Shown piece after piece: positions 21,410-64,000 of a stretch of DNA of 64,000 nt. Origin of the DNA: Squalus acanthias (Eukaryota). The notes under the pieces are model-generated. The model searched no databases. It was not told the origin of the DNA and saw nothing but the letters and a program-made list of their open reading frames with translations. Every line of letters starts with the position of its first letter. Within the stretch, counting starts at the first letter, position 1. Location of the stretch: assembly GCA_030390025.1 (NCBI GenBank), contig CM059434.1:79422001-79486000 (forward strand), in the 5' to 3' direction. A program made the position numbers and the translations under genes.

Positions 21410-21748
21410 GATGCTGGCAAGGCGGGCATTTATTGCTCAACACCAGCTGCCCTGAGCTTTGATACAATCGAGTAGGTTGCTGGGCCACTTCAGAGGGCAG
21501 TGAAGAATCCAACCACCTCGACTGTGAACAGTCAACCGGGTAAGGAACATTAACTAAAGGGACATTAGTGAACCGGTTGGGTTTTTTAATGACTTTCACG
21601 GTCGCTTTTACTGATCCCAGCATTTTTAAACTGAATTCAAAATCTCAAACTTTGATGGGGGGAATTTCCACTCGCAATCTGTGAATTCTTAGTCTTGGCC
21701 TCTGGATTACTAGTCCAGTAACAGAACCACTACACTCCCGTACTCCCA
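21410..21748 (-). mobile_element. tRNA-derived SINE of the 55317-LINE-related family (another copy at ~22058-22330)
   Basis: GGACATTAGTGAACC body and CTGGATTACTAGTCCAGT head signature. Confidence 0.7.
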
Positions 21749-22394
21749 TCGGCAGTAGGTGGGATAAGGAGTATATATATATATATGTGTGTGTGTGAGT
21801 GGCTGTGGCAAGGCTGGATTTATTGCCCTGAATACAGTGGGGTATAAATGCGTCTCAAGCAGTAGCGCGACACGGGCAAGAGCGAAGAGGCCGCCCATTA
21901 AACTCCACGGCCGATATTCAGCCCCACTGACTTCAACAGAACTGAATATTAAGCGGGGCGTATAACAGACGACAAATGCGATACCATCCGTTCAGCCCCA
22001 CCGCCCATGCTGAATTTCTACCCCTATAATTCCTGTTACGATTGAATGACTGGTCACTTCAGTGGATATTCAGAATCAACCAGTGTGGGACTGGAGTCAC
22101 GTGTATGCCCAGACCGGGTAAGGCTGGCAGCTTCCCTTCCCTGAAGGATATCAGTGAACCAGTTGGGTTTTTAACGACAATCTGCCAAATTTCAAAGATC
22201 ATTTCTCTTTTACCCTTGGTGCCAAATCCACAAATTACACATTTATTGGATTCACAATTTGTCGTGGTGAGATTTGAACTCACGGACCCTTGGGTTGCCA
22301 GTCCAGTACCAGAGCCTTTGCATTACCATACCCTTTGTAAGAGTGTGCCTTTAATGTTCGTACACAATGGGCAATATCAGAATAGGTACCATAC

Positions 22395-22984: not shown

Positions 22985-23575
22985 ATCCCACGGCACTATT
23001 CAAAGAAGAGCAGGGGGAGTTCTCCCCGGTGTCCTGCCCAATATTTATCCCTCAACCAACATCACTAAAACAGATTACCTGGTCATTATCTCATTGCTGT
23101 TTGTGGGAGCTTGCTGTGTGCAAATTGGTTGCCGCGTTTCCAACATTACATTTTAGGGCAACATGGTGGCATAGTGGTTAGCACTGTTGCCTCACAGCAC
23201 CAGGGACCCGGGTTCGAATCTGGCCCCGGGTTCGAATCTGGCCCCGGGTGACTGTCTGTGTGGAGTTTGCACATTGTCTGCGTGGGTTTCCTCCGGGTGC
23301 TCTGGTTTCCTCCCACAGTCCAAAGATGTGCGGGTTAGGTTGATTTGGCTATGATAAATTGACCCTTAGTGTTAGGGGGATTAAATACGTGGGGTTACGG
23401 GGATAGGGTGGGATATGTGTCGGTGCAGGCGCGATGGGCCGAAATGGCCTCTATCTGCACTGTGGGGATTCTGTGATTACAACAGTGACTACACTTCAAA
23501 AAGTACTTCATTGGCTGTGAAGCACTTTGAGACTTCCGGAGGTTGTGAAAGGTGCTATATAAATGTAATTAATTT
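22985..23575 (+). mobile_element. Deu-SINE 3' half with a V-SINE (~23156-23477) inserted
   Basis: ATTACA on both sides of the V-SINE; Deu-SINE sequence resumes at ACAGTGACTACAC; V-SINE has a 20-bp B-box duplication. Confidence 0.8.
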
Positions 23576-24274: not shown

Positions 24275-24569
24275 CTAATATGACCAAACAATGCACAGGA
24301 TTATGTCTATTGAAGTGTAAGACACATAACATGTTGTACTGTAGATGCTCACAACACAACTTGTGCCCCATTCAAAACGTAAATCCTACTTAAACTATTT
24401 TTGTAGAGTGAATCATGAGCACCATTAAGCAATGGCATCACAGCAACCTCTGTACTATTTACATTCGGCTTCAATGAGGTAAGTTTCTGGATGCACCATG
24501 GGTATCTTACTCACAATGGGACAACTCAACAACAACGTGTATTTATATAGCACCTTTAATGTAGAGAAA

Positions 24570-24820
24570 AACCCAACTGGTTCACACTAATGGCCTTCAG
24601 GGAAGGAAACCTGCCGTCCTTACCCAGTCTGGCCTGTATGCGGCTATAATCCCACACCAATGGGGCTGACTCTTAACGGCCCTCTGAAATGGCCTAGCAA
24701 GCCACTCAGTTGTAACAAACCGCTACCAACGGTTCAAGGAGAAGGCCCACCACCACCACCTTCTCAGGGCAACTAGGGATGGGCAATAAATGCTGGCCTT
24801 GCCAGCGACGCCCACATCCC
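24570..24820 (+). mobile_element. SINE (55317-LINE body joined to its tail), interrupted at its 3' end by a solo LTR
   Basis: Matches 55500-55657 and then 58501-58590; resumes as TCCCGAGAATGAAT after 26056. Confidence 0.85.
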
Positions 24821-29634: not shown

Positions 29635-32284
29635 ACTGGGGAGGGGCAATGGGAAACTGTGGAGGGGCAATGGAAACTGGGGAGGGGCAATGGGAAACTG
29701 GGGAGGGGCAGTGGGAAACTGGGGAGGGGCAGTGGGAAACTGGGGAGGGACAATGGGGAAACTGGGGAGGGGCAATGGGAAACTGGGCAGTGGGAAATGG
29801 GGAGGGGCAATGGGAAACTGAGGGGAGGGGCAATGGGAAACTGAGGGAGGAGCAATGGGAAACACGGTGGCATAGTGGTTAGCACTGGTGCCTCACAGCG
29901 CCAGAGACCCGGGTTCGAATCTGACCTCGGGTGACTGTCTGTGTGGAGTTTGCACATTCTCCCCGTGTCTGCGTGGGTTTCCTCCGGGTGCTCCGGTTTC
30001 CTCCCACAGTCCAAAAATGTGTGGGTTAGGTTGATTTGGCTATGATAAATTGACCCTTAGTGTTAGGGGGGATTAAATATGTGGGGTTATGGGGATAGGA
30101 TGGGATATGTTAGGGGGAATTAAATACGTGGGGTTACGGGGGTAGGGTGGGATATGTGTACAGTGGGGATTAAAGCAGGGACAGGGTACTGGATTTGGAT
30201 GATCAGCCATGATCGTATTGAATGGCGGAGCAGGCTCGACGGGCCGAATGGCCTACTCCTGCTCCTAGATTCTATGTTTCTATGTTTCTATGAAACTGGG
30301 GAGGGGCAGTGGGGAAACTGAGGGAGGGGCAGTGGGAAACTGAGGAGGGGCAGTGGGAAACTAGGGAGGGGCAATGGGAAACTAGGGTGGGGCAATGGGA
30401 AACTGGGGAGGGGCAATGAGGAAACTGGGGAGGGGCAATGAGGAAACTGGGGAGGGGCAATGGGAAACTGGGGAGGGGCAATGGGAAACTGGGGAGGGGC
30501 AATGGGAAACTGGGGAGGGGCAATGGGAAACTGAGGGAGGGGCAACGGGAAACTGGGGAGGGGCAACGGGAAACTGGGGAGGGGCAACGGGAAACTGGGG
30601 AGGGGCAATGGGAAACTGGGGAGGGGCAATGGGAAACTGGGGAGGGGCAATGGGAAACTGGGGAGGGGCAATGGGAAACTGGGGAGGGGCAATGGGAAAC
30701 TGGGGAGGGGCAATGAGGAAACTGGGGAGGGGCAATGGGAAACTGGGGAGGGGCAGTGGGAAACTGGGGAGGGGCAGTGGGAAACTAGGGAGGGGCAATG
30801 GGAAACTGAGGGGAGGGGCAGTGGGAAACTGGGGAGGGGCAATGGGAAACTGGGGAGGGGCAGTGGAGAAACTGGGGAGAGGCAGTGGGGAAACTGGGGA
30901 GGGGCAGTGGGAAACTGGGGAGGGGCAGTGGGAAACTGGGGAGGGGCAGTGGGAAACTGGGGAGGGGCAATGGGAAACTGGGGAGGCAATGGGAAAGTGA
31001 GGGGGGCAATGGGAAACTGGGGAGGGGCAATGGGAAACTGGGGAGGGGCAATGAGGAAACTGGGGAGGGGCAATGGGAAACTGGGGCGGGGCAATGGGAA
31101 ACTGGGGAGGGGCAATGGGAAACTGGGGAGGGGCAATGGGAAACTGGGGAAGGGCAATGGGAAACTGAGGGAGGGGCAACGGGAAACTGGGGAGGGGCAA
31201 TGGGAAACTGGGGAGGGGCAATGGGAAACTGGGGAGGGGCAATGGGAAACTGGGGAGGGGCAATGGGAAACTGGGGAGGGGCAATGGGAAACTGGGGAGG
31301 GGCAGTGGGAAACTGGGGAGGGGCAGTGGGAAACTAGGGAGGGACAGTGGGAAACTGGGGAGGGGCAATGGGAAACTGGGGAGGGGCAATGGGAAACTGG
31401 GGAGGGGCAATGGGAAACTGAGGGAGGGGCAATGGGAAACTGAGGGAGGGGCAATGGGAAACTGGGGAGAGGCAATGGGAAACTGAGGGAGGGGCAACGG
31501 GAAACTGGGGAGGGGCAATGGGAAACTGAGGGAGGGGCAACGGGAAACTGGGGAGGGGCAATGGGAAACTGGGGAGGCAATGGGAAAGTGAGGGGGGCAA
31601 TGGGAAACTGGGGAGGGGCAATGGGAAACTGGGGAGGGGCAATGAGGAAACTGGGGAGGGGCAATGGGAAACTGGGGCGGGGCAATGGGAAACTGGGGAG
31701 GGGCAATGGGAAACTGGGGAGGGGCAATGGGAAACTGGGGAAGGGCAATGGGAAACTGAGGGAGGGGCAACGGGAAACTGGGGAGGGGCAATGGGAAACT
31801 GGGGAGGGGCAATGGGAAACTGGGGAGGGGCAATGGGAAACTGGGGAGGGGCAATGGGAAACTGGGGAGGGGCAATGGGAAACTGGGGAGGGGCAATGGG
31901 AAACTGGGGCGGGGCAATGAGAAACTGGGGAGGGGCAATGGGAAACTGGGGAGGGGCAGTGGGAAACTGGGGAGGGACAGTGGGAAACTGGGGAGGGGCA
32001 ATGGGAAACTGGGGAGGGGCAATGGGAAACTGGGGAGGGGCAATGGGAAACTGAGGGAGGGGCAATGGGAAACTGAGGGAGGGGCAATGGGAAACTGAGG
32101 GAGGGGCAATGGGAAACTGGGGAGAGGCAATGGGAAACTGAGGGAGGGGCAACGGGAAACTGGGGAGGGGCAATGGGAAACTGAGGGAGGGGCAACGGGA
32201 AACTGGGGAGGGGCAATGGGAAACTGGGGAGGGGCAATGGGAAACTGGGGAGGGGCAATGGGAAACTGAGGAGGGGCAATGGGA
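29635..32284 (+). repeat. 21-bp G-rich minisatellite (GGGGAGGGGCAATGGGAAACT)n, split by a V-SINE
   Basis: About 100 units over 29635-29862 and 30292-32284; explains the long PIAPPQF/MGNWGGA ORFs. Confidence 0.97.
29863..30291 (+). mobile_element. V-SINE (HE1-like) inserted in the minisatellite
   Basis: tRNA head, V-domain and CR1 tail; near identical to 11773-12197 in the opposite orientation. Confidence 0.9.
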
Positions 32285-32520
32285 TACAAACTGCCCACAT
32301 GAACTATTTGTACTCTTAAGCTGTAGGAAAATGCTTCAGTGTCTGAAATCTGTAAATACCGATCGTCCTCGATCCTCCCCTTCACTTCCAGCTGTGCAGA
32401 ATATTCTTGATGTCTGCCAGATTCACTGGACATTGAATCTGTTAGAGGTACCTTGGGCTTATTTTTAATAACACTTTGAACAGTTAAGATTGAAGCGATG
32501 GGCAAGATTGACAGACCCAC

Positions 32521-32670
32521 CTCCTCCATCACCAGTAACTGGTCCCCGAAGTAGGTGCATTCACTGGTGAAGATCTCCCACATGGCCTCCTGTAGCTTCT
32601 TATCCTTCTGCTCCGTCCAGGTCTCTGGGTTAAGGTTCTGGATCTTCATTACGTGTGTCCAGCTTTTACC
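32521..32670 (-). CDS. PLEKHG7: PLEKHG7-like exon, start of DH domain (GKSWTHV...KLQEAMWEIFTSECTYFGDQLLVMEE)
   Basis: AG/GT flanks, 150 nt, phase 0-0; DH CR1 motif QEAxWExFTSExTY. Confidence 0.95.
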
Positions 32671-32829
32671 CTGACAAGGTAAGTAAGTCTTAGATAAACT
32701 GATACCGAAAGGCCAGCACATTGGCACGAGGGAAACAGTTAAAATCTGCAGGCAGAGAAAGCATTTGACTGATCCCTAACATCGGAGGACCCAGTTATGA
32801 GGCAAACTTCAGCTCTTCAACTTTGAAAG

Positions 32830-34598: not shown

Positions 34599-34884
34599 TT
34601 AAAATATATCTGATTCTGATTCCTAGTTAAGTACGTCTAATATCTTTTGCGAACGTGACACGTCGAGGGTGATTTTAAGAGTCTGGGCTGTGCATGGGGG
34701 GCTCGTCCTCCTCCCGCCCCCCCCCCCCACCCCGCCCCCACCCTGTTGGAAACTCCGTGCACACCGAGCATGATTTACCGACCACCATCGGAAAATTGTA
34801 CCCAATCGTGTCCCGTATTTCGGAAATGCACTGCTAGTGGACAAGTCTCCCCACCGGCTGTATGGACTTTCTAAAAAATTAATT

Positions 34885-35215
34885 CTCGGGATGTGGGCGT
34901 CGCTGGCAAGGCTGGCATTTATTGGCCATCCCTAGTTGCCCTGTAAAGGTGGTGGTGGGCCTTCTTGAACTGAAACTCCCTGTAGCATTTTTGAAACGAC
35001 TGAGGGCTTTGCTGGGCCACTTCAAAGGGCAGTTAAGAGGCAAGCACGTTGGTGTGGGACTGGAGTCACATATAGGCCAGACCGGGTAAGGACGGCAGAT
35101 TTCCTTCCCTAAAGGACATTAGTGAATCAGTTGGGTTTTTACAACAATCTGACAGCTTCATGGTCACAATCTGACAGCTTCATGGTCATTTTTACTGATA
35201 CGAGCTCTTTATTTC
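34885..35215 (-). mobile_element. SINE of the 55317-LINE-related family
   Basis: Reverse complement of the body and tail seen at 24570-24820. Confidence 0.8.
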
Positions 35216-37660: not shown

Positions 37661-38479
37661 GGGGGAAAAATTCAGTTGGTTGCGCCTCCCGTTAGCGCCT
37701 TAAGAGGGCGCTAATGGGGCGCAAAGCAACTAGCGCCCGGGCATGGTGATGTTTGCGCCGCTCGCGAAATTAACTAGACATTTGCGGCGGTGCTAAACAG
37801 TACCGCCACGATCTCCTGCGCCGGCAGATCGTGACGTCAGTCGAGTGAGCAACGCCCCGGTAGCGCCCCGGAGCGGATATTGAGTGGCGCCCCCTACCTT
37901 ACCGCCTGCCGCTAGCAACAACAGGTTGAGGGGAGCGTTTTGCAGTCAGGAAGGGACTGGGGGAGCGCTATTTAAAGGCAACCGCTTCCTGCCTTTTTTT
38001 TGTTGGCGACATTTTTGAACCACGCATTCTGAGAGAGAGAGAGAGACTTCTGGAGAGATTCAACGCTGTGTGAAGGAGTTTTGTGTACTGAGCAGCACTT
38101 TGCAGGTTCATTTCGATTTGCCCTTCCTTGTATCGATTTAGAAGAGACTGTGGGGGCTGCACTCTGAGCTCTTTCCCTGGGCCTCTCCATTGTTCTTTCC
38201 AGCAGATTTGATGTACAGGTCTTTCCAGGCCGTGATTCAAGGCTGCAATGAGCAGGATGTGGATGGAAAGCAAGATCAACCATCCCCTTTAAGAACTGAC
38301 CCGGGCCATTGTGTGTGTGTTCCATTGCTGACTGACATCACATGAGCTTCGCCAGCGCTCTGAGTTAGTGCCTCGCTCCTCGGCCTTTGCGCCTTATGAC
38401 AGATGTGTAGCGCCTGATTTAGAGCTCCAATCACCTACGGGGGCGATAATAGTCAAGTTTGCAGTCGGAGGCGATAATT
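37661..38479 (+). mobile_element. 904-bp Harbinger-like MITE family, copy A (right end lost)
   Basis: Starts GGGGGAAAAATTCAG; collinear with 52374-54720 minus its insert; ends against a Deu-SINE fragment. Confidence 0.85.
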
Positions 38480-38659
38480 GGTCATTATCACATTGCTGCT
38501 TGTGGGAGCTTGCTGAGCGCAAATTGGCTGCCGTGTTTCCTACATTACAACAATGACTACATTTCAAAAAGAACTTCATTGGCTGTAAAGTGCTTTGGGA
38601 CGTCCGGTGGTCGTGAAAGACGCTATAGAAATGCAGGTCTTTCTTTTTCTTCTTTTACT

Positions 38660-42323: not shown

Positions 42324-45300
42324 TTACAATTGCATTTAACATCTGCTTAATTTAATAAATTACCTATATACACACATCTTTTATTTGTAACAGTTACTGA
42401 TACAAAAGTCTACAGATTTGTGACTAAAGCACCAATAACTTCCCAATTAATGTACTTTTTTAATGATGTTCTTGATCGTATTTGTAGATGGAGTCATATT
42501 ACTTGATAATTTTATTTAAATATTTCTTTGTCACTCATATATAACTTTTATCATATGATTGTACAGTAAAGATTCAACACCCACTATGTTAGATTAAACT
42601 TAAAATTTAATGTGGCCATGGTCCCTTAAAGAATCCTGGCTTAAAACGCGTCATGAATGACGTCACCAGACTCGCTCCATCTAATTGGGCTGGGTAACAC
42701 GCTGGTTTAATAGGCCCCATTAAGGTAAGTTCATTCTGTACAGCGGGATGGAGCCAGCAGCAGGGTCGGGACCAGACATCGACACCGGCCACACCGGACC
42801 TAAACCTCTTCATCTCTCTACTTTTCTCTCCCCCTTTAAGACGCTCCTTAAAACCTACCTCTGACCAAGCTTTTGGTCATCTATCCTAATATCTCCTTAT
42901 GTGGGTCGTTGTCAAAGTGTATTTAACCTCCACGTGAGCAATTTTTCCTAATCACATTTACCCGCCCTGTTCCCATATCCCTTCAAATCCTTTTCCTTCA
43001 TCCACCTCTCCAATCTAATCTTCAATGTTGACACAGTTTCTGCCTCAGCCACTGACCCTGGAAGTGAATTCCACAACTCTCTGTGAAGGAGTTTCTCCTG
43101 CTCTCTTTAATCTTGGATCTGTGGCCCCTTGTTCCAGATCCTACTGGAAACAGAATCTACCCTGTCTGATCCTTTCATCATTTTAAACACTTCTATCATA
43201 TCACCTCGTAATCTGTGTTGTTGTAGTGAAAAAAGACCCAATTTTTCAAGCTACTCCTGGCTATCAATTAACCTCCCTGTAAACTACAAGCACAGAAAGC
43301 AGAATTGGCTGTTCACAGTTGGGTTGAAGTGTGGATGTAATGTTGCTTACCTTCCAGGCTCTGAATCCTGGACTGTCTGGGAAGAGAAAAGCAACAAAGT
43401 AAGTTGGGATTCAGGAAACAGTTGGGAAAATTTTTGAACCATACTTTTTAACAAAAGACTGAACTAGGTACACCATGGCAAATTATTACACAGTCAAATA
43501 CAACTCAATTAGTTTGTATAAAATATTTTGTATGATTTGGAGACAGCAGAGAAGCTGAGCTGCAATCAGATTCTCACGTGGGGACGTTCACTGTATCTAA
43601 CTGCTCGCCGTACCTTACTCTGTTTATCAAACCTGCCTGTTTTTAACTGGAGGACAAGTCCTACTGAGCAATGTTTCTCAATATTATTTTCAATAAAACA
43701 GGATGATATCTCTCCCCCACCCCCCGCCGTTGCAGGTCCCTCTCGCTCACCACGCGCTCGCCTCAGAGGCAGATGGCATTTCCCAATCACTGGGTCCGCA
43801 CTGGGCACTGATTCACTGCCGGGTCCTCCCTCCCTATGATGAGACACCTCACCCCTGGCCAGTACTGGCCAACGGGAAACTCAGCTTTGCACTCAAATGT
43901 GTGAGGTTAACGGGATTAATATTGTTCTCAATGTGATAAATTGCAGGCGAGAGCCCGAGCCCTAGAAATTCGTCTCGGGCAGGGGCACAAAACGGGCGGT
44001 ATCGGATCGGCCGCCCGTTATACGCAGTGTCTGATATTTAATTTGCAGCCAATAAAGCACTTCTAAAGCGTAATCGCTGTTGCAATGTAGGAAACACGGC
44101 AGCCAATTTGCGCACAGCAAGATCCGACAAACAGAAATAGGATAAATGTCCAGATCATCTGTTTTAGGTGTTGACTGAGGGACAAATGTTGGCGCACTTC
44201 CTGTCTGCACCACTTGAGTTCTTGTTGTCATGTTTATGTCACACTTGCCGTGTTACTTTTTTCCATTCTAAATTCCTATGCCCACATTCACAATGGAAAT
44301 GTCGATGTGAACTCATCGCCATGATTGTGCCATCTGGCCACTGGGTTCCCACAATTCCCTCAAAATGCTTTCTGAATTTTTTTTCTCTGTAACTAAAAAT
44401 TCTATTGTCCAAAATAAGGTTCCAACAACATTTTATAAATTCCAAAATATTGCATATTTTACCATAACATGATTAAATTTTCCTGTTGAATTGTCTTTTG
44501 TATCTTTTAATGCTTTCATTAAAGTTTACTTGATGACTTCAGCCTATCCCAAAATAACCTGGGCTTGGCTTTGATATTCTGCCCAGAGCTCTGATGATAT
44601 GAGCTGTATTTGGATTGTACAGTCTGAGCAGATACAGTGTACCTCATTTCCCAGGACGCATCAGTACCATTCAGTAAATTATACTGATGGAATATTTTTC
44701 TTCAGTTTGTAGCAATTATTTGACGAAAAGTTAGAAAACAGAGTGAGTACGTGTTTGTGTGAATGAGACAGAGAGAGCGCGAGAGAGAGACAGGGGACAA
44801 TGGCAGTGTTCTGATTACATACCCGTGTAGCTTTTATTTTGTGTTGTAAAACTCCAGAAAGTGAAAGAGACTGCGCTCAGAGAGAGGGGAAGAGAGAGAT
44901 TGCATGGGTGTGAGCGAATGGTGAGGGGAAGAAACAATGTGTATTTCTTCACATAATGTCACTTCAATCTATTATATATTAAAAATGGTGAGTGGTCTCA
45001 AGATTTCAACTGCACTCCACAAGCAGGTGAGGCTTTAAACGTAATGTTATGTGACAGATTGAAAACAATGGGATGTCACCTAACGTTACGTGACAGCCTT
45101 CAGCACCCTTCCTCCTAACTCCATACATTCAAAAATGACAGATATTGTCAAAAGGTTAACTTCCCAATTGTTTTGTGAGTTCTAAATGTTTATCCTTACC
45201 AAATCCCCGCACAATGGCAAGGTTGTTTAAATTCCTGATCTTTGCCGGAAACAGAAAGCCAGAAGTTGAAAGAATGCATCAACAGGCCCCTGTTTGAAGT

Positions 45301-45480: not shown

Positions 45481-47914
45481 ATAGAGTCATAGTCATAGAG
45501 TTATACAGCACAGAAAGAGGCCTTTCGTGTCCATGCCAGCCATCAAGCCCTGTCTATTCTAATCCTATTTTCCAGCACTTGGTCCGTAGCCTTGTATGCT
45601 ATGGCGTTTCAAGTGCTCATCTAAATGCTTCTTGAATGTTGTGAGGGTTCCTGCCTCTACCACCCTTTCAGGCAGTGAGTTCCAGATTCCAACCACCCTC
45701 TGGGTGAAAAAGTTTTTCCTCAAATCTCCTCTAAACCTCCTGCCCCTTACCTTGAAACTATGCCCCCTGGTTACTGACCCCTTTACTAAGGGGAAAAGTT
45801 CCTTTCTATCTACCCTATCTATGCCCCTCATAATTTTGTACACCTCAATCAGGTCCCCCCTCAGCCTTCTCTGCTCTAAGGAAAACAACCCCAGCCTGTC
45901 CAGTCTCTCTTCATAGCTGAAGCGCTCCAGCCCAGGTAACATCCTGGTGAATCTCCTCTGCACCCTCTCCAATGCAATCACATCCTTCCTATAGTGTGGC
46001 GACCAGAACTGCACACAGTATTCCAGCTGTGGCCTAACTAGCGTTTTGTACAGCTCCATCATAACCTCCCTGCTCTTATATTCTATGCCTCGGCTAATGA
46101 AGGCAAGTATACCATATGCCTTTTTAACCACCTTATCTACCTGTCCTGCTGCCTTCAGGGATCTATGTACATGCATACCAAGGTCCCTCTGATCCTCTGT
46201 CCTTCCTAGGGTCCTACCATTCATTGTGTATTCCCTTGCCTTGTTAGTCCTCCCAAAATGCATCATATCACACTTTTCAGGGTTAAATTCCATTTGCCAC
46301 TGTTCTGCCCATCTGACCAACCCGTCTATATCGTCCTGTAATCTAATCCTGTAGCCTGAGGCTTCCCTCCTCGCTATTTACCACCCCACCAATTTTCGTG
46401 TCATCTGCGAACTTACTGATCATACCTCCTACATTCATATCTAAATCATTAATGTACACTACAAACAACAAAGGACCCAGCACCGATCCCTGCGGTACAC
46501 CACTGGACACAGGCTTCCAGTCACAAAAACAAGCTTTGACCATCACCCTCTGCCTCCTGCCACTAAGCCAATTTTGGATCCAATGTGCCAAATTGCCCTG
46601 GATCCCATGGGCTCTTACCTTCTTGACCAGTCTCCCATGTGGGACGTTGTCAAAAGCCTTACTGAAGTCCATGTAGACTACATCAACTGCACTACCCTCA
46701 TCCACACACCTAGTCACCCCCTCAAAATTCAATCAAATTGGTCAGACATGATCTCCCCCTGACAAAGCCATGCTGACTATCCTTGATTAATCCTTGCCTC
46801 TCCAAGTGGAGACTAATTCTGTCCCTCAGAATTTTTTCCAATAATTTCCCTACCACTGATGTTAGGCTCACTGGCCTGTAATTCCCTGGTTTATCCCTAC
46901 TACCCTTCTTGAATAATGGTACTATGTTAGCTGTTCTCCAGTCCTCTGGCACCTCCCCTGTGGCCAGAGAGGTTCTGAAAATTTGTGTCAGAGCCCCTGC
47001 AATCTCCTCCCTTGCCTCACACAGCAGCCTGGGATACATCTCGTCTGGGACTGAGGATTTATCCACTTTTAAGACCGCTAAAACTGCTAGTACCTCCTCC
47101 CTCTCAATACTAATTTGTTCAAGTATATCACAATCCCCCTGCCTGATTTCTATGCCTACATCGTCCTTCTCCATAGTGAACACAGATGCAAAATATTCAT
47201 TTAAAACATCACCTACATCTTCTTGCTCTACACACAGATTGCCACTTTGGTCCCTAATGGGCCCTACTCTTTCCCCGGTTATCCTCTTGCCCTTAATATA
47301 CTTATAAAACACCTTGGGATTTTCCTTTATTTTGCCCGCCAGACTCCTTGCATTAAAATAAATGCCATCCAGCCTTGCCATACTCCCTTGTGCCGTTACA
47401 TATTTGCTCTGCCTTCCAGGCTGACTTGTTTTTTCCTCTATATTTGGCTGTGCATCACCCCCTACTATAGCTCCACTCCGTATCCCATCCCCCTGCCAAG
47501 TTAGTTTAAACCCCCCACAACAGTACTAGCAAACCTCCCCGCAAGGATGTTGGTCCCGTTCCGGTTCAGGTGCAACCCGTCCGACTTGTACAGGTCCCAC
47601 CTTCCCCAGCATCAGACCCAGTGATCCAGGAAACTAAAGCCCTCCCTCCTGCACCAACTCTTTAGCCACGCATTCATCTGCTCTATCCTCCTATTCCTAT
47701 ACTCACTAGCACGTGGCACCGGGAGTAATCCAGAGATTACAACCTTTGAGGTCCTGCTTTTTAATCTGCTACCTAGCTCCCTAAATTCTTGTTGCAGGAC
47801 TTCATCCCTCTTTCTACCCATGTCGTTGGTACTAATGTGAACCATGACCTCTGACTGTTCGCCCTCCCCCTTCAGAATGCCCTGCAGCCGTTCAGTGACA
47901 TCCTTGACCCTGGC
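45481..47914 (-). mobile_element. CR1 LINE with partial ORF1 (SGNH esterase-like) and ORF2 lacking nearly all of the endonuclease
   Basis: ORF1 VHISTND..VVISGLLP; ORF2 YFNARSL joined directly to IKENPK; RT YINDLD and FADDTK with frameshifts. Confidence 0.92.
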
Positions 47915-52373: not shown

Positions 52374-54720
52374 GGGGGAAAAATTCAGTTGGTTGCGCCT
52401 CCCGTTAGTGCCTTAAGAGGGCGCTAATGGGACGCAAAGCAACTAGTGCCCGGGCGCGGTGATGTTTGCGCCGCTCGCGAAATTAACTAGACATTTTGCG
52501 GCGGCGCTAAACAGTTCCGCCACGATCTCCTGCGCCGGCAGATCGTGACGTCAGTCGATTGCGCAACGCCCCGGTAGCGCCCCGGAGCGGATATTGAGTG
52601 GCGCCCCCTGCCTTACCGCCTGCCGCTAGCAACGACAGGTTGAGGGGAGCGTTTTGCAGTCAGGAACGGACTGGGGGAGCGCTATTTAAAGGCGACCGCT
52701 TCCTGCCTTTTTTTGTTGGCGACATTTTTGAACCACGCATTCTGAGAGAGAGAGAGAGAGACTTCTGGAGAGATTCAACGCTGTGTGAAGGAGTTTTGGG
52801 TACTGAGCAGCACTTTGCAGGTTCATTTTGATTTGCCCTTCCTTGTATCGATTTAGAAGAGACTGTGGGGGCTGCACACTGAGCTCTTTCCCTGGGCCTC
52901 TCCATTGTTCTTTCCAGCAGATTTGATGTACAGGTCTCTCCAGGCCGAGATTCAAGGCTGCAATGAGCAGGATGCCAATGTAACCCCTCTTTTTAAAAAA
53001 GGAGGGAGGGAGAAAGCAGGGAATTATAGACCGGTCAGCCTGACATCGGTCGTGGGTAAAATGATGGAAGCAATTATTAAAGATGTCATAACAGACCATT
53101 TGGAAAGTGGCGACATGATAGGTCCAAGTCAGCATGGATTTGTGAAAGGGAAATCATGCTTGACAAATCTTCTGGAATTTTTTGAGGATGTTTCCAATAG
53201 GGTGGACAGGGGGGAACCAGTAGATGTGGTGTATTTGGACTTTCAGAAGGCCTTCGACAAGGTCCCACACAAGAGATTGGTGAGCAAAGTTAAAGCACAT
53301 GGGATTGGGGGTAATGTGTTGACGTGGATTGAGAACTGGTTGGCACACAGGAAACAAAGAGTAGGAGTAAATGGGTACTTTTCAGAATGGCAGGCAGTGA
53401 CCAGCGGGGTACCGCAGGGTTCGGTGCTGGGACCCCAGCTGTTTACATTATATATTAATGATTTGGACGAAGGGATTAAATGTAATATCTCCAAATTTGC
53501 GGATGACACTAAATTGGGAGGCAGTGTGAACAATGAGGAGGATGCTAGGAGGCTACAGAGTGACTTGGACAGGTTGGGTGAATGGGCAAATGTATGGCAG
53601 ATGAAGTACAATGTGGATAAATGTGAGGTTATCCACTTTGGTGTTAAAAATAGAGAGGCGGACTATTACCTGAATGGTGGCAGATTAGGGAAAGGGGACG
53701 TGCAACGAGACCTGGGCGTCATGGTACATCAGTCACTGAAGGTGGGAATGCAAGTGCAGCAGGCAGTCAAGAAAGCAAACGGAATGATGGCCTTCATAGC
53801 AAGGGGATTTGAGTACAGGAGTAGGGAGGTGATGCTGCAGTTGTACAGGGCCTTGGTGAGGCCACACCTGGAGTATTGTGCGCAGTTTTGGTCTCCTAAC
53901 TTAAGGAAGGACATTCTTGCTATTGAGGGAGTGCAGCGAAGGTTCACTAGATTGATTCCTGGGATGGCCGGACTGACATATCAAGAAAGATTGGGTCAAC
54001 TGAACTTGTATCCTCTGGAGTTCAGAAGAATGAGGGGGGATCTTATAGAGACATTTAAAATCCTGACTGGTTTAGACAAATTAGATGCGGGCAGAATGTT
54101 CCCAATGGTAGGGAAAACTAGAACCAGGGGTCACAGTCTAAGGATTAAGGGGAAGCCATTTAGGACTGAGCTGAGGAGGAACTTCTTCACCCAGAGAGTG
54201 GTGAATCTATGGAATTCTCTTCCACAGAAGGTTGTTGAGGCCAGTTCGCTAAATATATTCAAAAGGGAGTTAGATATAACACTCACAACTAAGGGGATCA
54301 AGGGGTATGGCGAGAAAGCAGGAATGGGGTACTGAGGTAGCATGTTCAGCCATGAACGCATTGAATGGCGGTGCAGGCTCGAAGGACCGAATGGTCTACT
54401 CCTGTACCTATTTTCTATGTTTCTATGTTTCTATGAAAGCAAGATCAACCCTCCCCTTTAAGAACTGGCCGGGGCCATTGTGTCTGTGTTCCATTGCTGA
54501 CTGACATCACATGAGCTTCGCCAGCGCTCTGAGGTAGCACCTCGCTCCTCGGCCTTTGTGCCTTAAGACAGATGTGTAGCGCCTGATTTAGCACTCCAAT
54601 CACCTCCAGGGGCGATAAAAGTCAAGTTTGCAGTCGGAGGCGATAATTAGCGCCAGGCGCTAATCTTTGCGCCCGGCCGATAATTGCGCCCCAAACGGGG
54701 CGATACTGAATTTTTCCCCC
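52374..54720 (+). mobile_element. 904-bp Harbinger-like MITE family, copy D, carrying a CR1 insertion
   Basis: TIRs GGGGGAAAAATTCAG/CTGAATTTTTCCCCC; 3-bp TSD ATG; splits a CR1 3'UTR. Confidence 0.92.
52975..54435 (+). mobile_element. Young 5'-truncated CR1 LINE with an uninterrupted RT and C-terminal ORF (stop at 54335)
   Basis: NYRPVSL, LDFQKAFD, GVPQGSVLGP, YINDLD and FADDTK all in one open frame; (TTTCTATG)n tail. Confidence 0.95.
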
Positions 54721-54925
54721 ATGATTTCCAAAGCTCTCCACCATTAGGGTTTTCCTCGCCTCATGTCTGGGTCTGTTGTATTTATTGATAGAGATTGATT
54801 GCTGTGATTAGTCAACAAATCCATTATTGTATCATGCAACTATCAGGATGGTAAAAGGTGGACTAGATGGACCTTGCTCTTTTTTCAGCTAGCAATTTCT
54901 ATGTTCCTATGTTCTGATCATTTAT

Positions 54926-55133
54926 TGAGAGGTCGCACAACACCAGGTTATAGTCCAACAGTTTTATTTGAAATCACAAGCTTTCGGAGCTATCGATCGC
55001 CCCTTCCTCAGGTGAAGGGGCGATCGATAGCTCCGAAAGCTTGTGATTTCAAATAAAACTGTTGGACTATAACCTGGTGTTGTGCGACCTCTCAATTTTG
55101 TCCACCCCAGTCCAACACCGGCATCTCCGCATC
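54926..55133. mobile_element. Penelope-like element end: 83-bp-arm perfect palindrome with a hammerhead core
   Basis: Arms 54924-55006 and 55014-55096, 7-nt loop; 12-bp TSD CTGATCATTTAT at 54914-54925 and 55134-55145. Confidence 0.85.
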
Positions 55134-55316
55134 CTGATCATTTATCTCATTGCTGTTTGTGGGACCTTGCTGTGTGCAAATTGTTTGCCACGTTTACTTA
55201 CATTACAAGGGTGACTACACTTCAAAATAATTAATTGACTGTGAAGCGCTTTGGGACGTCCTGAGGTCATGAAAGGCAGAACATTTATTGAAGCAACATA
55301 AAATATTGAGCATCTT

Positions 55317-58300
55317 GGGGAACGGTAGTGTAGTGGTAATGTCACTGGGCTAGTAATCCAGAGGCCTGGACTAATGATCCAGAGACGTGAGTTCAAATCC
55401 CACCACGGCAGCTGTGGAATTTAAATTCAGTTAATTAAATAAATCTGGAATAAAAAGCTAGTATCAGTAACGGTAACCATGAAACCATCAGATTGTCGTA
55501 AAAACCCATCTGGTTCACTAATGTCCTTTAGTGGAAGGAAATCTGTTGTCCTTACCCGGTCTGGCCTATATGTGACTCCAGACCTACAGCAATGTGATTG
55601 ACTCTTAACTGACTCTGAAATGGCCCAGCAAGTCACTCAGTTGTAACAAACCGCTACGAAACACAATAATAAGAATAAAACCAGACGGACCACCCGGCAT
55701 CGACCTCGGCCCCGGCTACGGACACGGCAATTACACACCCAGCCCAGTTGACCCTGCAAAGTCCTCCTCACCAACATCTGGAGACTTGTGCCAAAATTGG
55801 GAGAGCTGTCCTACAGACTAGTCAAGCAACAGCCTGACATAGTCATACTCACAGAATCATACCTTTCAGGCAATGTCCCAAAATCCTCCATCACCATCCC
55901 TGGGTATGTCCTGTCCCATCGGCAGGACAGACCCACCAGGGGTGGCTATACAGTCGGGAAGGAGTGGCCCTGGGAGTCCTCACCCTTGACTCCGGACCCC
56001 ATGAAGTCTCATGGCTTCAGGCCAAGCATGGGCAAGGAAACCTCCTGCTGATTACCACCTACTGTCCTCCCTCAGCTGATGAATCAGTACTCCGCCATGT
56101 TGAACACCACTTGGAAGAAGCAAGGGCACAGAATGTACTCTGGGTGGGGGACTTCAATGTCCATCACCAAGAGTGGCTCGGTAGCACCACTACTGACTGA
56201 GCTGGCCGAGTCCTGAAGGACATAACTGCCAGTCTGGGCCTGCGACAGGTGGTGAGAGAACCAACATGAGGGAAAAACCTACTTGACCTCGTCCTCACCA
56301 ATCTACCTGTCGCAGATGCATCTGTCCATGACAGTATTGGAAGCAGTGACCACCGCACAGTCCTTGTGGAGACCAAGTCCTGTTTTCGCACTGAGGACAC
56401 CCTCCATCGTGTTGTGTGGCACTACCACCGTGCTAAATGGGATAGATTCAGAACAGATCTAGCAGCTCAAAAATGGGCATCCATGAGGTGTTGTGGGTCA
56501 TCAGCAGCAGCAGAATTGTATTCCACCACAATCTGTAACCTCATGGCCCGGCATATCCCTCATTCTACCATTACTATCAAGCCAGGTAACCAACCCTGGT
56601 TCAATGAGGAGTGTAGAAGAGCATGCCAGGAGCAGCACCAGGTGTATCTAAAACTGAGGTGCCAACCTGGGGAAGCTGCAACACAGGACTGCATGCATGT
56701 AAAAAAGTGGAAGCAGCATGCTATAGACAGGGCTAAGCGATCCCACAATCAACAGATCAGATCAAAGCTCTGCAGTCCTGCCACATCCAATCGTGAATGG
56801 TGGTGGACCATTAAACAACTAACGGGAGAAGGAGACTCCATGAACATCCCCATCCTCAATGATGGTGGCGCCAAGCACGTGAGTGCAAAAGACAAGGCTG
56901 AAGCGTTTGCAACCATCTTCAGCCAGAAGTGCCGAGTGGATGATCCATATCGGCCTCCCCGAGGTCCCCACCGTCACAGAAGCCAGTGTTCAGCATATTT
57001 GATTCACTCCACGTGATATCAAGAAACAGCTCAGCGCACTGGATACAGCAAAGGCCATGGGCCCCAACAACATCCCAGCTATCGTGCTGAAGACCTGTGC
57101 TCCAGAACTAGCCGCGCCTCTAGCCAAGCTGTTCCAGTGCAGCTACAACACTGGCATCTATCCGACAATGTGGAAAACTGCCCGGGTATGTCCTGTCCCC
57201 AAAAAGCAGGATAAATTCAATCCGGCCAATTACCGCCCCATCAGTCTACTCTCAATCATCAGCAAAGTGATGGAAGGTGTCATCGACAGTGCTATCAAGC
57301 GGCACTTACTCACCAATAACCTGCTCACTGATGCCCAGTTTGGGTTGCACCAAGACCCCTCAGCTCCCGACCTCATTACAGCCTTGGTCCAAACATGGAC
57401 AAAGGAGCTGAATTCCAAAGGTGAGGTGAGAGTGACTGTCCTTGACATCAAGGCAGCATTTGACCGAGTGTGGCATCAAGGAGCTCCAGTAAAACTGAAG
57501 TCAATGGGAATCAAGGGGAAAACACTCCACTGGCTGGAGTCACACCTAACACAAAGGAAGATGGTTGTGGTGATTGAAGGTCAATCATCACAGCCCCAGG
57601 ACATCGCTGCAGGAGTTCCTCAGGGCAGTGAACTAGCCCAACCATCTTCAGCTGCTTCATCAATGATCTTCCCTCCAACATAAGGTCAGAAATGGGGATG
57701 TTTACTGATGACTGCACAGTGTTCAATGCCATTCACAGCTCCTCAGATAATGAAACAGTCTATGCCCGCATGCAACAAGATCTGGACGATGTTCAGGCTT
57801 GGGCTGATATGTGGCAGCTAACATTCGCGCCACAGAAGTGCCACGCAATGACTATATGCAACAAGTAAGAGTCTAACCACCGCCCCTTGACATTCAACGA
57901 CATTACCATCGCCTAATCCCCCACCATCAACATCCTGGGGGGGGTCATCATTGACCAGAAACTTAACTGGACCAGCCACATAAATACTGTGGCAACCAGA
58001 GCAGGTCACAGGCTAGGTATTCTGCAGTGAGTGTCTCACCTCCTGACTCCCCAAAACCTTTCCACCATCTACAAGACACAAGTAAGGAGTGTGATAGAAT
58101 AATCTCCACTTGCCTGGATGAGTGCAGCTCCAACAACACTCAAGAAGCTCGACACCATCCATGACAAAGCAGCCCACTTGATTGGTAACCCATCTACCAC
58201 CTTAAACATTCACTCCCTCCACCACCGGCGTACCGTGGCTGCAGTGTGTACCATCTACAAGATGCACTGCAGCAACTCGCCAAGGCTTCTTCGGCAGCAC

Positions 58301-58595
58301 CTCCCAAACCTGCGACCTCTTCCGCCTAGAAGGACAAGGGCAGCAGGCGCATGGGAACACCACCACCTCCAAGTTCCCCTCCAAGTCACACACCATCCTG
58401 ACTTAGAAATATATCGCCGATCCTTCATCGTCGCTGGGTCAAAATCCTGGAACTCACTCCCTAACAGCACTGTGGGAGTACCTTCACCACACGGACTGCA
58501 GCAGTTCAAGAAGGCAGCTCACCACCACCTTCTCAAGGGCAATTAGGGATGGGCAATAAATGCTGGCCTTGCCAGCGACGTCCACATCACAAACG
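55317..58595 (+). mobile_element. CR1/L2-group LINE with tRNA-derived head and a single, decayed APE+RT ORF
   Basis: A box 55326-55336, B box 55391-55400; APE motifs KVLLTNIW, DIVILTES, GDFN, SDH; RT motifs NYRPISL, LDIKAAFD, GVPQGS, FTDD; several stops and frameshifts. Confidence 0.88.
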
Positions 58596-59044
58596 ATTTT
58601 TAATTTTTTTTTACTGATATGAAAAGATAGAGACCTCATAGATATAATATTTGAAATACTACTCATTCGCCACTATCCAAAACTCGCTGAAGATACAAGT
58701 AATTTTCTTCTTCCTCCAAATCTTTATAGAATCATACAGCACAGGAGGCCATTTGGCCCATCATGCCCGTGCCGGCTCTTTGAAAGAGCGATCCAATTAG
58801 TCCCACTACCTCCTGCTCTTTCTCCACAGCCCTGCAATTATATTTCGCCTTCAAGTATTTATCCAATTCCCTTTTGAAAGTTACTATTGAATCTGCTTTC
58901 ACCGCCCTTTCAGGCAGTGAATTCCAGTTATTTATATTCTGTTTTAATTTTGTTGTTTTACCTCCCAGGGTGATTTGCAGTATTTGTGCCAGTGTTTCGT
59001 CTGTTTGTTCCCCTCGCTCCCTCCCCAAAACCTCTCTTCGTTTT

Positions 59045-60006
59045 AGAAACATAGAAAAATAGGAGCAGGAGTCGGCCATTCGGCCCTTCGAGCCTGCTCC
59101 GCCATTCAATATGATCATGGCTGATCCTCTATCTCAATACCATATTCCCGCGCTCTCCCCGTACCCCTTGATGCCTTTTGTGTCTAGAAATCTATCTATC
59201 TCCTTCTTAAATATATTCAGTGACTTGGCCTCCATATCCTTCTGTGGTAGAGAATTCCACAGGTTCACCACCCTCTGAGTAAAGAAATTTCTCCTCATCT
59301 CAGTCCTAAATGTCCTACCCCGTATCCTGAGACTGTGACCCCTCGTTCTAGACCCCCCAGCCAGGGGAAACATCCTCCCTGCATCCAGTCTGTCTAGCCC
59401 TGTCAGAATTTTATACGTTTCAATGAGATCCCCTCTCATTCTTCTAAACTCTAGTGAATACAGGCCTAGTCGACCCAATCTCTCCTCATACAACAGTCCT
59501 GCCATCCCAGGAATCAGTCTGGTGAACCTTCGCTGCACTCCCTCTATGGCAAGTATATCCTTTCTTGGGTAAGGAGACCAAAACTGCACACAGTACTCCA
59601 GGTGTGGTCTCACCAAGGCCCTGTATAACTGTAGTAAGACATCCTTGCTCCTGTATTCAAATCCTCTTGCAATGAAGGCCAACATACCATTTGCCTTCCT
59701 AACTGCTTGCTGTACCTGCATGTTTGCTTTCAGTGACTGGTGTACAAGGACACCCAGGTAACTTTGTACATCAACATTTCCCAATCTATCAACATTTAAA
59801 TAATACTCTGCCTTTCTGTTTTTCCTACCGAAGTGGATAACTTCACATTTATCCACGTTATACTGCGTCTGCCATGTATTTGCCCATTCACTCAACTTGT
59901 CTAAATCGCCTTGAAGCCTCTTTGCATCCTCCTCACAACTCTCAATCCCACCTAGTTTTGTGTCGTCAGCAAACTTGGAAATATTACATTTGGTTCCCTC
60001 ATCCAA
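59045..60006 (-). mobile_element. Young CR1 3' fragment (290-aa open frame)
   Basis: FADDTK to the C-terminal end uninterrupted; related to 52975-54435. Confidence 0.93.
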
Positions 60007-60414
60007 TTTTCTTAGTTATTTACATGTTTTTAAGTAAGATTGTTTCCTCCCCCCCACCCCCTTAACTCTTACGGTGGTTTTGCGGTACTTGCTGAAGTCA
60101 CTGTTTGTGTGACACTGGGCGGGGAGGTTTCATCCAGCACCTGATCAGCTGGTCACTTGGCACAATCTGGGCCTGGCTAGCTGACTGGCTCCAGGTGCAA
60201 TGTTGGAGATCAGCAACAAAATGCTCATTAACATTCTCCTCAGCAACGTAAATAAAAACGTATTCCAAACAACACTGTCAGCCCAGAATTTTTATTTACT
60301 GGCTTAAACTCACATTTATTTGTACGTTTTCTGCCTGGTTGTCAAAGTGCATTCTGGGTATTGTAGTTCTACAAGAGCAGGATGAGAATGAATACTCCCA
60401 TGATCTCAGTTTCT

Positions 60415-61191
60415 CTCTGACTCTTACATTCACTCTCATTCTCACACTCTCACTCACGCACTCAATCCTTCATTTTCTTTCACTCACACTCACTCTCTCA
60501 CTCAATCCTTCATTCTCACTCTCACACACTCGCCCTCACTCTCTCTTACTCACTCACTCACACTCAATTTTTTATTCTCACTCTCTCACACTCAATCTTT
60601 CATTCTCTTTCACTCATACTCACTCACATACTCAATCTTTCATTCTCTCCCACTCACACACTCAATCCTTCATTCTCACTCACACTCTCACGCACTTGCC
60701 CTCACTCTCTCGCTCACCCTCACATTTAATCTTTCATTCTCTCTACTTTTGCACTCACTCTCTCACTCAATCTTTCATTCTCACTNNNNNNNNNNNNNNN
60801 NNNNNNNNNNNNNNNNNNNNNNNNNNNNNNNNNNNNNNNNNNNNNNNNNNNNNNNNNNNNNNNNNNNNNNNNNNNNNNNNNNNNNNNNNNNNNNNNNNNN
60901 NNNNNNNNNNNNNNTCTCTCTCTCACATTCTCACTCTCACATTCTCCCTCTCACACGCTCACTCTCACACGCTCACTCTCACTCTCACGCTCACGCTCAC
61001 ACTCACACTCACACTCACTCTCACTCTCACTCTCACTCTGACACTCACTCTCTCACTCCATCCTTCATTCTCTCTCTCACATTCTCCCTCTCACATGCTC
61101 ACTCTCACACGCTCACTCTCACACGCTCACTCTCACTCTCACTCTCACACTCACACTCACACTCACACTCACACTCACACTCACTCTCACA

Positions 61192-61224
<33 letters not shown>

Positions 61225-63785
61225 TCACACTCACTCTCACTCCATCCTTCATTCTCTCTCACATTCTCACTCTCACACACTCACTCTCACACGCTCACTC
61301 TCACACGCTTACTCTCTCACGCTCACTCTCACATTCTCACTCACACTCACTCACACGCTTACTCTCACACTCATTCTCACACTCACTCTCACACGCTTAC
61401 TCTCACGTTCTCACTCTCACACTCACTCTCACATTCTCACTCACACACTCACTCTCACACGCTCACTCTCAAATTCTCACTCTCACACGCTCACTCTCAC
61501 ACGCTTACTCTCACATTCTCACTCTCACACGCTTACTCTCACATTCTTTCTCTCACACTCTCTCACACTCTCACGCTCACCCTCTCACTCTCAATTCTCA
61601 CACTCTCACATTCTCACTCACTCCATCCTTCATTCTCACTCTCACTCATTCTCACTCTCACACTCTCAATTCTCACTCTCACACGCTCACTCTCACATTC
61701 TCACTCTCATTCTCACTCTCATTCTCACTCTCATTCTCACTCTCACACTCACTCTCACATTCTCATTCTCACACGCTCACTCTCACACTCCATCCTTCAT
61801 TCTCACTCTCACACGCTCACTCTCTCACATTCTCACACTCACTCTCACACTCTCAAATTCTCACTCTCTCACTCTCACACACTCACTCTCACACACTCAC
61901 TCTCACTCTCACTCTCACGCTCACTCTCACGCTCACTCTCACACTCACTCTCACACTCACTCTCACACTCACTCTCACATTCTCATTCTCACACGCTCAC
62001 TCTCACACTCCATCCTTCATTCTCACTCTCACATGCTCACTCTCACATTCTCACACTCACTCTCACACTCTCAAATTCTCACTCTCNNNNNNNNNNNNNN
62101 NNNNNNNNNNNNNNNNNNNNNNNNNNNNNNNNNNNNNNNNNNNNNNNNNNNNNNNNNNNNNNNNNNNNNNNNNNNNNNNNNNNNNNNNNNNNNNNNNNNN
62201 NNNNNNNNNNNNNNNNNNNNNNNNNNNNNNNNNNNNNCTCACACTCATTCTCACTCTCACACTCACTCTCTCACTCCATCCTTCATTCTCTCTCTCACAT
62301 TCTAACTCTCACACGCTCACTCTCACACGTTTTCTCTCACACGCTTACTCTCACACACTTTCTCTCACATTCTCACTCTCACACACTTTCTCTCACATTC
62401 TCACTCTCACACGCTCACTCTCACACACTCACTCTCACACACTCACTCTCACATGCTTACTCTCACACACTTTCTCTCACATTCTCACTCTCACACGCTT
62501 ACTCTCACATTCTTTCTCTCACACTCTCTCACACTCTCACGCTCACTCTCTCACTCTTAATTCTCACACTCTCACTCACTCTCACATTCTTACTCTCTCA
62601 CACTCACTCCATCCTTCATTCTCACTCTCACACTCACTCTCACATTCTCACTCTCACACGCTCACTCTCACACGCTCACTCTCACACTCACTCACACTCA
62701 CACTCACTCACACTCACACTCACTCACTCTCACACTCACTCACTCTCTCACTCCATCCTTCATTCTCTCTCACATTCTCACACTCACACGCTCACTCTCA
62801 CATTCTCACTCACACGCTCACTCTCACATTCTCACTCTCACACGCTCACTCTCACATTCTTTCTCTCACACTCTCTCACACTCTCACGCTCACTCTCTCA
62901 CTCTCAATTCTCACACTCTCACTCACTCTCACATTCTCACTCTCTCACACTCACTCCATCCTTCATTCTCACTCTCACTCATTCTCACTCTCACACTCTC
63001 AATTCTCACTCTCACACGCTCACTCTCACACTCCATCCTTCATTCTGACTCTCACACGCTCACTCACTCACGCTCACTCTCACACACTCACTCTCACACT
63101 CCATCCTTCATTCTCACTCTCAATTCTCACTCTCACACGTTCACTCTCACACGCTCACTCTCACGCTCACTCTCACACGCTCTCTCACACGCTCTCTCAC
63201 ACGCTCTCTCACGCTCACTCTCACACGCTCACTCTCACACGCTCTCTCACACGCTCTCTCACACTCACTCTCACGCTCACTCTCACGCTCACTCACACGC
63301 TCACTCTCACACGCTAACTCTCACACGCTCACTTTCTCACTCTCACACGCTCACTCTCACACGCTCACTCTCACACGCTCTCTCACATGCTCTATCACGC
63401 TCACTCTCACGCTCACTCTCACGCTCACTCACACGCTCACTCTCTCACTCTCACATGCTCACTCTCACACGCTCACTCTCACACGCTCACTCTCACACGC
63501 TCACTCTCACACGCTCACTCTCACACTCTCACTCTTTCACTCCATCCTTCATTCTCACTCTCTCACACTCACTCTCACATGCTCACTCTCACACGCTCAC
63601 TCTCACATGCTCACTCTCACACTCACTCTCACACTCACTCTCACACTCACTCTCACACACTCACTCTCACACTCACACTCACTCTTTCACTCCGTCCTTC
63701 ATTCTCACTCTCTCACACTCACTCTCACACACTCACTCTCACACTCACACTCACATGCTCACTCTCACACGCTCACTCTCACACA
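60415..63785. repeat. Degenerate CA/CT microsatellite array (CTCACA/CTCACTCTCACA), with assembly gaps at 60786-60914 and 62087-62237
   Basis: Directly visible; explains the SH/LT low-complexity ORFs. Confidence 0.97.
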
Positions 63786-64000
63786 ATATGTTGACAAGAG
63801 CTGTAAATTCCTCCTGTTTTCCTACCCAGTTACTGTGGCATGGGTTGTTGTGACACCCTCCGTGTATTATCGAGGAGGGCAAACTATTGCTATTCTAGTT
63901 ACAATTGGAGGCTATGGTGGGAGAGTTAGAGTACAAGAGGGATGAGCTTTAATAGGCTGAATGATTTTCTCTTATCCCTGCCTTTTCTAAGAAAAATGTA

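Follow-up and report, generated by a model that had tools for sequence, protein, structure and literature searches.

Long interspersed nuclear elements (LINEs) are held to be RNA polymerase II (Pol II) elements, and SINEs (short interspersed nuclear elements) non-coding RNA polymerase III (Pol III) elements (Kojima, 2018; PMC5786205). In Bov-tA, CoeSINE4 and SINE2_Gav the SINE has both 5′ and 3′ sequence of its LINE, the tRNA head belongs to the short element alone, and Pol II transcription is assumed for the LINE; RTE-1_DAn was also compared, with the position and role of its sequence left unstated (Kojima, 2018; PMC5786205). According to the available part of Stuart et al. (2026; PMC13343379), hagfish, coelacanth and five elasmobranchs have Zenon LINEs, every one of which lacks ORF1 and ends in a poly-A tail. 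The elasmobranch members (SquAca_Zenon-1/2/3, CarCar, RhiTyp, ScyCan and HypSab_Zenon-1) measure about 3.3 kb and have one open reading frame (ORF) each. Lepidopteran Zenons are also single-ORF elements, of 3.1–3.7 kb, in the accessible sections of Wang et al. (2019; PMC6740152). A tRNA-headed SINE of a shark host, SacSINE1 of the Deu-SINEs, appears in the available part of Luchetti et al. (2017; PMC5499810) and belongs to a different family from the one treated here. The present locus lies in 64,000 nucleotides of Squalus acanthias (GenBank assembly GCA_030390025.1, contig CM059434.1, positions 79,422,001 to 79,486,000, forward strand), a stretch referred to as the window. It holds a Zenon LINE in which a tRNA-like head is linked to the single ORF and T-runs are scarce, and a local SINE family that contains both ends of this LINE. 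Here, in contrast to Bov-tA and its like, the coding LINE itself is headed.

By its sequence, the element is a decayed copy of a known elasmobranch Zenon LINE of the CR1 group. The published consensuses were compared by eye over their first 400 bases. Across this span the element is about 95% identical to SquAca_Zenon-1, with about 19 differences and the same first base. It also has one ORF encoding apurinic/apyrimidinic endonuclease (APE) and reverse transcriptase (RT), no ORF1, and an A-rich family tail. No sequence difference separates it from the elasmobranch Zenons as far as these are described in the available part of PMC13343379. Trees of the RT half set it apart from a CR1 of the window (support 99/96 and 87/96) and near an amphioxus sequence (P0131), beside one from a moth (P0129), in a sampling with no labelled Zenon row and weak deep forks. 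The cut at hits of 130 residues or fewer removed no row from these trees. Zenon-family matches are also found in gene models of Heterodontus, Heptranchias and Cetorhinus. Near-full-length copies number in the hundreds to thousands per shark genome (59 to 2313 across six rows that could be read in Supplementary Table 3 of PMC13343379). The intact-ORF proportion given there for SquAca_Zenon-1, 675852, is apparently a spreadsheet conversion error and was excluded from the copy counts.

The first-pass annotation had raised the question whether the structure was already catalogued. The sequence has in fact been published as Zenon, head included, and what has gone unremarked in the available part of PMC13343379 is the head. 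Neither ‘tRNA’ nor ‘polymerase III’ occurs in the main text (0 times each), ‘tRNA’ occurs 0 times in the supplement text, and the local SINE and the start codon are undiscussed in the parts covered. No paper on a shark LINE with a tRNA head or Pol III transcription came out of a literature search that did not extend to Repbase, Dfam, SINEBase or the Zenodo file of PMC13343379. The family and its sequence are thus already catalogued, and the 5′ tRNA-like module is unremarked and surprising.

The copy, 3273 bases long, comprises the following parts.

55318–58590, forward strand: LINE copy, Zenon-type, full-length but decayed; its first base is that of SquAca_Zenon-1 (3314 nt)
55318–55411, forward strand: tRNA-like head, from an Rfam tRNA match, with boxes A and B read from the sequence
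55412–55657, forward strand: body common to the SINE, neither Deu nor Meta
55615–55640, forward strand: predicted hairpin whose loop has 7 bases, intact in the SINE at 24570 and decayed in this copy; contains ATG 55620
55653–55757, forward strand: spacer, an Arg/Lys-rich leader in the ORF frame from GCT 55653
55758–58546, forward strand: APE and RT frame, with frameshifts near 55947, 56955 and 57636 and 7 stops
56383–56386, forward strand: sole sense-strand TTTT, likely a mutation of this copy
58547–58590, forward strand: 3′ untranslated region (UTR), with AATAAA at 58555–58560

The tRNA-like boxes do stand at the start of the element, which is shifted by one base from the 55317 first proposed. 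Box A lies at 55326–55336 and box B at 55390–55400. Rfam searches were run on this head and on the headless SINE at 24570; the tRNA match, at 55324–55411, scores 21.7 bits (E 0.097), under the gathering score of 29. ARAGORN called zero tRNA genes across the 64-kb window, LINE head included, and the predicted fold of the head gives no clean cloverleaf (z −0.85). The anticodon arm is present twice, as 21-base units at 55345–55365 and 55366–55386. This duplication is shared by the LINE, the SINE at 21410 and the Squalus consensuses, is missing from the SINEs at 2155 and 22058, and can serve as a marker by which LINE and SINE subfamilies are put in order. Downstream of the head, body and spacer, the frame matches APE (PF14529, E 1.6e-15) and RT (PF00078, E 5e-18 and 3e-6), leaving no space for an ORF1. 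The reported absence of ORF1 is therefore real, yet it is no surprise, because all Zenons lack ORF1 in the available part of PMC13343379. Decay is evident as well, with the 3 frameshifts and 7 stops spread over four ORF pieces. No target-site duplication of the LINE copy was found, the best candidate being a 6-mer 56 bases past its end. Runs of T5 and T9 follow this copy at 58597–58612, and the SINE at 34885 ends in T6; a T-ended subfamily could bring its own Pol III terminator.

The junction between head and ORF is a property of the family, as the first-pass annotation had proposed, and recurs in sharks and a ray, in consensuses, contigs and gene models. Head, body and spacer stand at the start of 7/7 elasmobranch Zenon consensuses from 5 species, while the two hagfish and one coelacanth consensuses have no tRNA-like head (0/3). 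Contigs from 4 of 24 sequencing runs were placed on 55150–58750 at 80% likeness. In the junction bin (55634–55754) their summed depth, which is not a copy number, is 531k in run X7, 609k in X1, 260k in X6 and 3.7k in X17, similar to that of the neighbouring bins; the 3′ flank has 389, 864, 168 and 12, respectively. X17, which may be an RNA run and consists of contigs only, thus covers the junction as well; the 24 runs listed include no raw RNA reads. Among the 32 contigs listed, two span the junction, one differing by 51 letters and the other by 38, and no alternative 5′ end is indicated by the 24 listed of about 16,600 contig loose ends. The loose-end consensus at 58588 shows an A-rich family tail in 4/4 runs. 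In the whale shark, body or spacer peptides come ahead of APE clearly in gene model P0034 (E 5e-9) and over a few residues in P0030 and P0032, three of the 6 short homologues to which the N-terminal piece led. P0061, a model reached through the RT, has the spacer peptide (E 4e-8). A junction peculiar to this locus, made by insertion of a 5′-truncated LINE in or beside a SINE, would suit the repeat-dense window and the missing target-site duplication. Such a chance insertion is ruled out for practical purposes, because the same junction is found in seven consensuses of five species, under continuous depth, in diverged bridging contigs and in the whale-shark models.

Contig depth climbs about 15- to 20-fold toward the 3′ end of the LINE in the three large runs, in agreement with the prediction of 5′ truncation. 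Over the last 400 LINE bases (58175–58537) the depth at least doubles; abundant short copies left by truncation may account for this, or else a further short element whose Zenon tail is longer. Searches of Joint Genome Institute metagenomes and of viral contigs recovered no shark DNA, with 0 confirmed among 58 and 14 pattern matches, respectively. The 77 distant metagenome loci have no blastn similarity to the LINE head or tail, ARAGORN found a tRNA in 0/29 of those scanned, and Rfam matches in 14 loci include no tRNA; few of these loci reach the true 5′ end, and these head negatives accordingly say little. One distant relative (L004:897–3890) has a single AUG-led ORF of 998 codons. The DNA upstream of it resembles part of a LINE, nested and in opposite orientation, so that the 5′ end of this relative is unreadable.

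The SINE family of the window was described in the first-pass annotation as the two ends of the LINE joined together. Both matches are real: the SINE at 24567–24818 aligns with 55500–55660 (136/160) and 58504–58588 (78/84) of the LINE. This copy has no tRNA head, however. The further copies named at 2155, 21410, 22058 and 34885 are all present, with the reservation that the one at 34885 lacks the head and the one at 22058 lacks the tail. The copies, together with a second LINE of the same family, are listed below.

24567–24818, forward strand: SINE, 5′-truncated, with body to 55660 and tail from 58504
2155–2570, reverse strand: SINE with head (single arm), body, about 66 unrelated bases and tail; approximate ends
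21413–21741, reverse strand: SINE with head (duplicated arm), body and short tail
22034–22333, reverse strand: SINE with head and body, no tail; approximate ends
34873–35167, reverse strand: SINE, 5′-truncated, with body and tail
1588–1890, forward strand: 5′-truncated copy of the same LINE family, the last 310 bases at 82%

The body is present in 5/5 window copies, the head is reached in 3/5, and the last 45–90 LINE bases are found in 4/5. With a box A/B head in three copies and a tail from the partner LINE in four, the short family fits a tRNA-derived SINE (SINE2); the tail is that of the Zenon LINE and not that of the window CR1s, V-SINEs (HE1) being defined by a V domain and a HER1/CR1 tail. 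Junctions vary by copy, from 55625 to 55660 on the 5′ side and from 58483 to 58532 on the 3′ side. The SINE looks like a single lineage, because one base present in both LINE tails is missing from 4/4 SINE tails. Its origin as a deletion derivative of the LINE has a precedent in Persaeus, which consists of 5′ UTR and ORF start joined to ORF end and 3′ UTR and which the local SINE resembles. Persaeus differs in having no tRNA homology, no Pol III promoter and several origins in the accessible sections of PMC6740152, whereas the local SINE has a tRNA-like 5′ end and one common indel in all four tails. Alternatively, the LINE may have taken its head from an older SINE, and deletion and capture may both have occurred in turn. 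Two known SINE domains were tried for the body and rejected. The 20-base Deu motif, from the supplement of PMC5786205, hits only 13635–13654, in a family that does not align with the head. For the Meta domain, which spans 66 bases behind the tRNA head of MetaSINEs, a single motif was tried, of 17 bases from bivalves, with 1 window hit outside the element against 0.65 expected.

T4+ runs terminate Pol III transcription. The sense strand of the LINE has a single TTTT, at 56383, compared to 16 A4+ runs and to four TTTT in the CR1 frame at 52947–54332, counts which bear out the first-pass annotation. This TTTT encodes Phe where 3/3 homologous peptides have Leu, and it therefore likely arose after insertion. 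A count against shuffled codons had also been suggested; for TTTT alone the depletion is not significant in one copy, but T3+ runs and TT are depleted. TTTT is observed once against 4.7 expected under base shuffling (P=0.05), a single copy giving such tests little power. In the coding part, 8 T3+ runs compare with 14.0 when codons are permuted (P=0.012) and 19.8 when codons are redrawn (P=0.0005). The observed/expected ratio of TT is 0.69 and that of AA 0.95 in the LINE, while TT reaches 1.14–1.23 in three window CR1s. One TTTT in 2763 LINE coding bases stands against 14 in 3625 CR1 bases (binomial P=0.0025). For T4 per kb and for the ratios of TT, T3 and T4, the LINE also lies below 52/52 related loci, namely those of the 77 distant relatives with at least 1 kb of homologous span. 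Across species, TTTT is absent from the first 400 bases of 7/7 headed consensuses and present in 3/3 headless ones.

The start of translation was said to lack an obvious ATG. An in-frame ATG does exist, at 55620, but stops come after it: TAG at codon 3 in 6/7 consensuses, and a second stop, TAA 55644, which this copy has in common with the consensuses of Squalus. In the whale shark the consensus lacks one base. ATG 55620 as a simple true start is thus ruled out by the TAG at its third codon, and the published consensuses have no uninterrupted in-frame AUG. A second ATG site at 55675 (ATA in this copy) is found in 6/7 consensuses, out of the ORF frame. A non-AUG start near 55653 is proposed instead, behind the predicted hairpin, in which the loop might form pairs with the first codon. 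GCT 55653 is in the ORF frame in this copy and in the main consensuses of 4/5 species (CarCar, ScyCan, HypSab and RhiTyp, the last with a 3-base indel); for three of these consensuses the printed text ends before APE. The leader from this codon has 11 Lys/Arg and no Asp/Glu in 46 codons and one stop, TGA 55749, which is likely a CpG change. It is basic like those of the closest full-length relatives (P0123, P0001 and P0136), the leaders of other relatives being less so. In the intact SINE copy the hairpin is both the minimum free energy and the centroid fold, and its loop middle, an anticodon-like AGC, could form 3–4 pairs with the GCT codon 12 bases downstream. The SINE body ends two bases past this codon. 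In pseudoknot I of the dicistrovirus intergenic-region internal ribosome entry site (IRES), a hairpin loop pairs with a codon-like stretch and sets the frame without an AUG. The present case has just 3–4 pairs, no Rfam match and no covariation support, and is a lead rather than a membership; an IRES-like start is a tentative proposal, less likely than not. Folding of the spacer is no better than that of shuffles (z 0.70).

These observations can be joined in one explanation, in which the head was gained in the shark and ray ancestor, the LINE is likely transcribed by Pol III and translation starts at a non-AUG codon near 55653; the chances of the whole are about even. The head seems to be a shark and ray acquisition: besides its absence in the hagfish and coelacanth consensuses, the Zenon derivatives of Lepidoptera have no Pol III promoter either (accessible sections of PMC6740152). 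A Zenon LINE would have exchanged its 5′ UTR for a tRNA-headed module, whose boxes A and B would recruit Pol III, and selection would have purged T-runs that stop the transcript early. The uncapped RNA would load ribosomes through the structured body, with the hairpin loop AGC perhaps pairing with GCT 55653 and so setting the frame. The LINE protein would then copy its own RNA by target-primed reverse transcription, and one internal deletion, from about 55650 to 58500, would yield a SINE copied in trans. Pol III RNAs are able to retrotranspose without ORF1p, according to the available part of PMC2666806. If true, a protein-coding Pol III retrotransposon of 3.3 kb would break the division of LINEs as Pol II and SINEs as Pol III elements. 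It would also provide a natural Pol III-made mRNA with cap-independent, AUG-free translation, a one-step deletion route to a SINE, and a possible function for the conserved SINE body, a long-open question. A bolder version, which is rather improbable, has the Pol III LINE predate the split of sharks and rays, with terminators purged and the uncapped RNA translated through the body as a tRNA-mimicking, IRES-like module that the SINE kept to dock on ribosomes and capture the LINE protein.

Pol III transcription of the LINE is, on these sequence features, somewhat probable, and several points weigh against it or against the start that goes with it. AATAAA serves for the polyadenylation of certain SINE RNAs made by Pol III. 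The AATAAA at 58555 and the A-rich family tail fit Pol II, and Zenons of all phyla have poly-A tails; Pol III transcripts are as a rule untranslated (available part of PMC2666806). Loss of ORF1 needs no Pol III explanation, because it is absent in all Zenons, and some L2s also lack it (available part of PMC3880073). The single TTTT is not significant against 1.8 expected from dinucleotide shuffling (P=0.45) or 2.1 from permuted codons (P=0.34), and the comparator loci are T-richer, distant and not mutually independent. At the proposed start, the GCT frame is off by one base in SquAca_Zenon-1 and out of register in SquAca_Zenon-2. The hairpin is no more stable than shuffles (z 0.31 and −0.56), its pair covariation over six window copies is matched by 55/500 shuffles, and the loop–codon pairing was seen post hoc, with chance giving 2–6%. 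No Rfam IRES match was obtained at E up to 10 for the LINE or the SINE at 24570. The AATAAA, the A-rich tail and the non-significant TTTT count suit a doubtful alternative in which the head is fixed in the LINE and the coding RNA comes from Pol II, through a promoter in the head or body or through host read-through. The Pol III boxes would then serve the SINE only or be passengers, and T scarcity would reflect strand composition or codon bias. The lepidopteran derivatives without a Pol III promoter agree with it, as do ATG 55620, in a favourable context, and the second ATG of the consensuses. However, the boxes lie at the extreme 5′ end in sharks and a ray, T3 depletion persists with protein and codon usage fixed while A-runs are not depleted, and for both ATGs a stop or a frame change intervenes before the ORF.

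An AUG start after all is unlikely to a similar degree and would be compatible with either polymerase, through readthrough of UAG after ATG 55620 or through ATG 55675 and a −1 shift. ATG 55620 is in frame with a single intervening UAG in 3/5 species (CarCar, HypSab and ScyCan), and the second ATG, common to six consensuses, begins the whale-shark model P0061. The second stop in the Squalus sequences and the base missing in the whale shark argue against the former route. As for the latter, no canonical slippery heptamer is common to all species, and the second ATG may arise merely where Asn-Glu codons of the ORF frame adjoin. By eye, both frames show about the same substitution pattern. It is far less probable that the tRNA-like fold is a processing signal, at which an RNase P-like cut would free the 5′ end of RNA co-transcribed from host promoters, much as self-cleaving ribozymes act in R2, RTE and Ingi elements. 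The consensuses share a sharp 5′ end, six LINE clades are known to process their own 5′ ends (PMC5786205), and an uncapped RNA would likewise account for the missing AUG. Yet processing does not predict the T-run depletion, and the head has no clean cloverleaf, no ARAGORN call and, in Squalus-type copies, a duplicated arm.

Other repeats surround the element. A second SINE family of about 455 bases, with the Deu core motif, is found at 14799–15252, 4127–4573, 13579–13817, 22985–23150, 38479–38653, 44042–44191 and 55134–55277, and is, by its sequence, probably a true SacSINE1-type element. The tail of the last copy ends 40 bases upstream of the Zenon element. Just upstream of the LINE, at 54924–55096, lies an almost perfect inverted repeat, in which 96 bases match themselves at 95%, possibly a miniature inverted-repeat transposable element or an assembly fold-back. 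The controls for the T-run counts, at 52857–54335, 45565–47525, 59134–60015 and 10133–10591, are three CR1-type LINE fragments and one presumably RTE-like fragment. Long simple-repeat arrays at 30272–32775 and 60252–63945 give spurious ORFs, the second containing N gaps, and spliced coding pieces seem to lie enclosed at the edge of the first.

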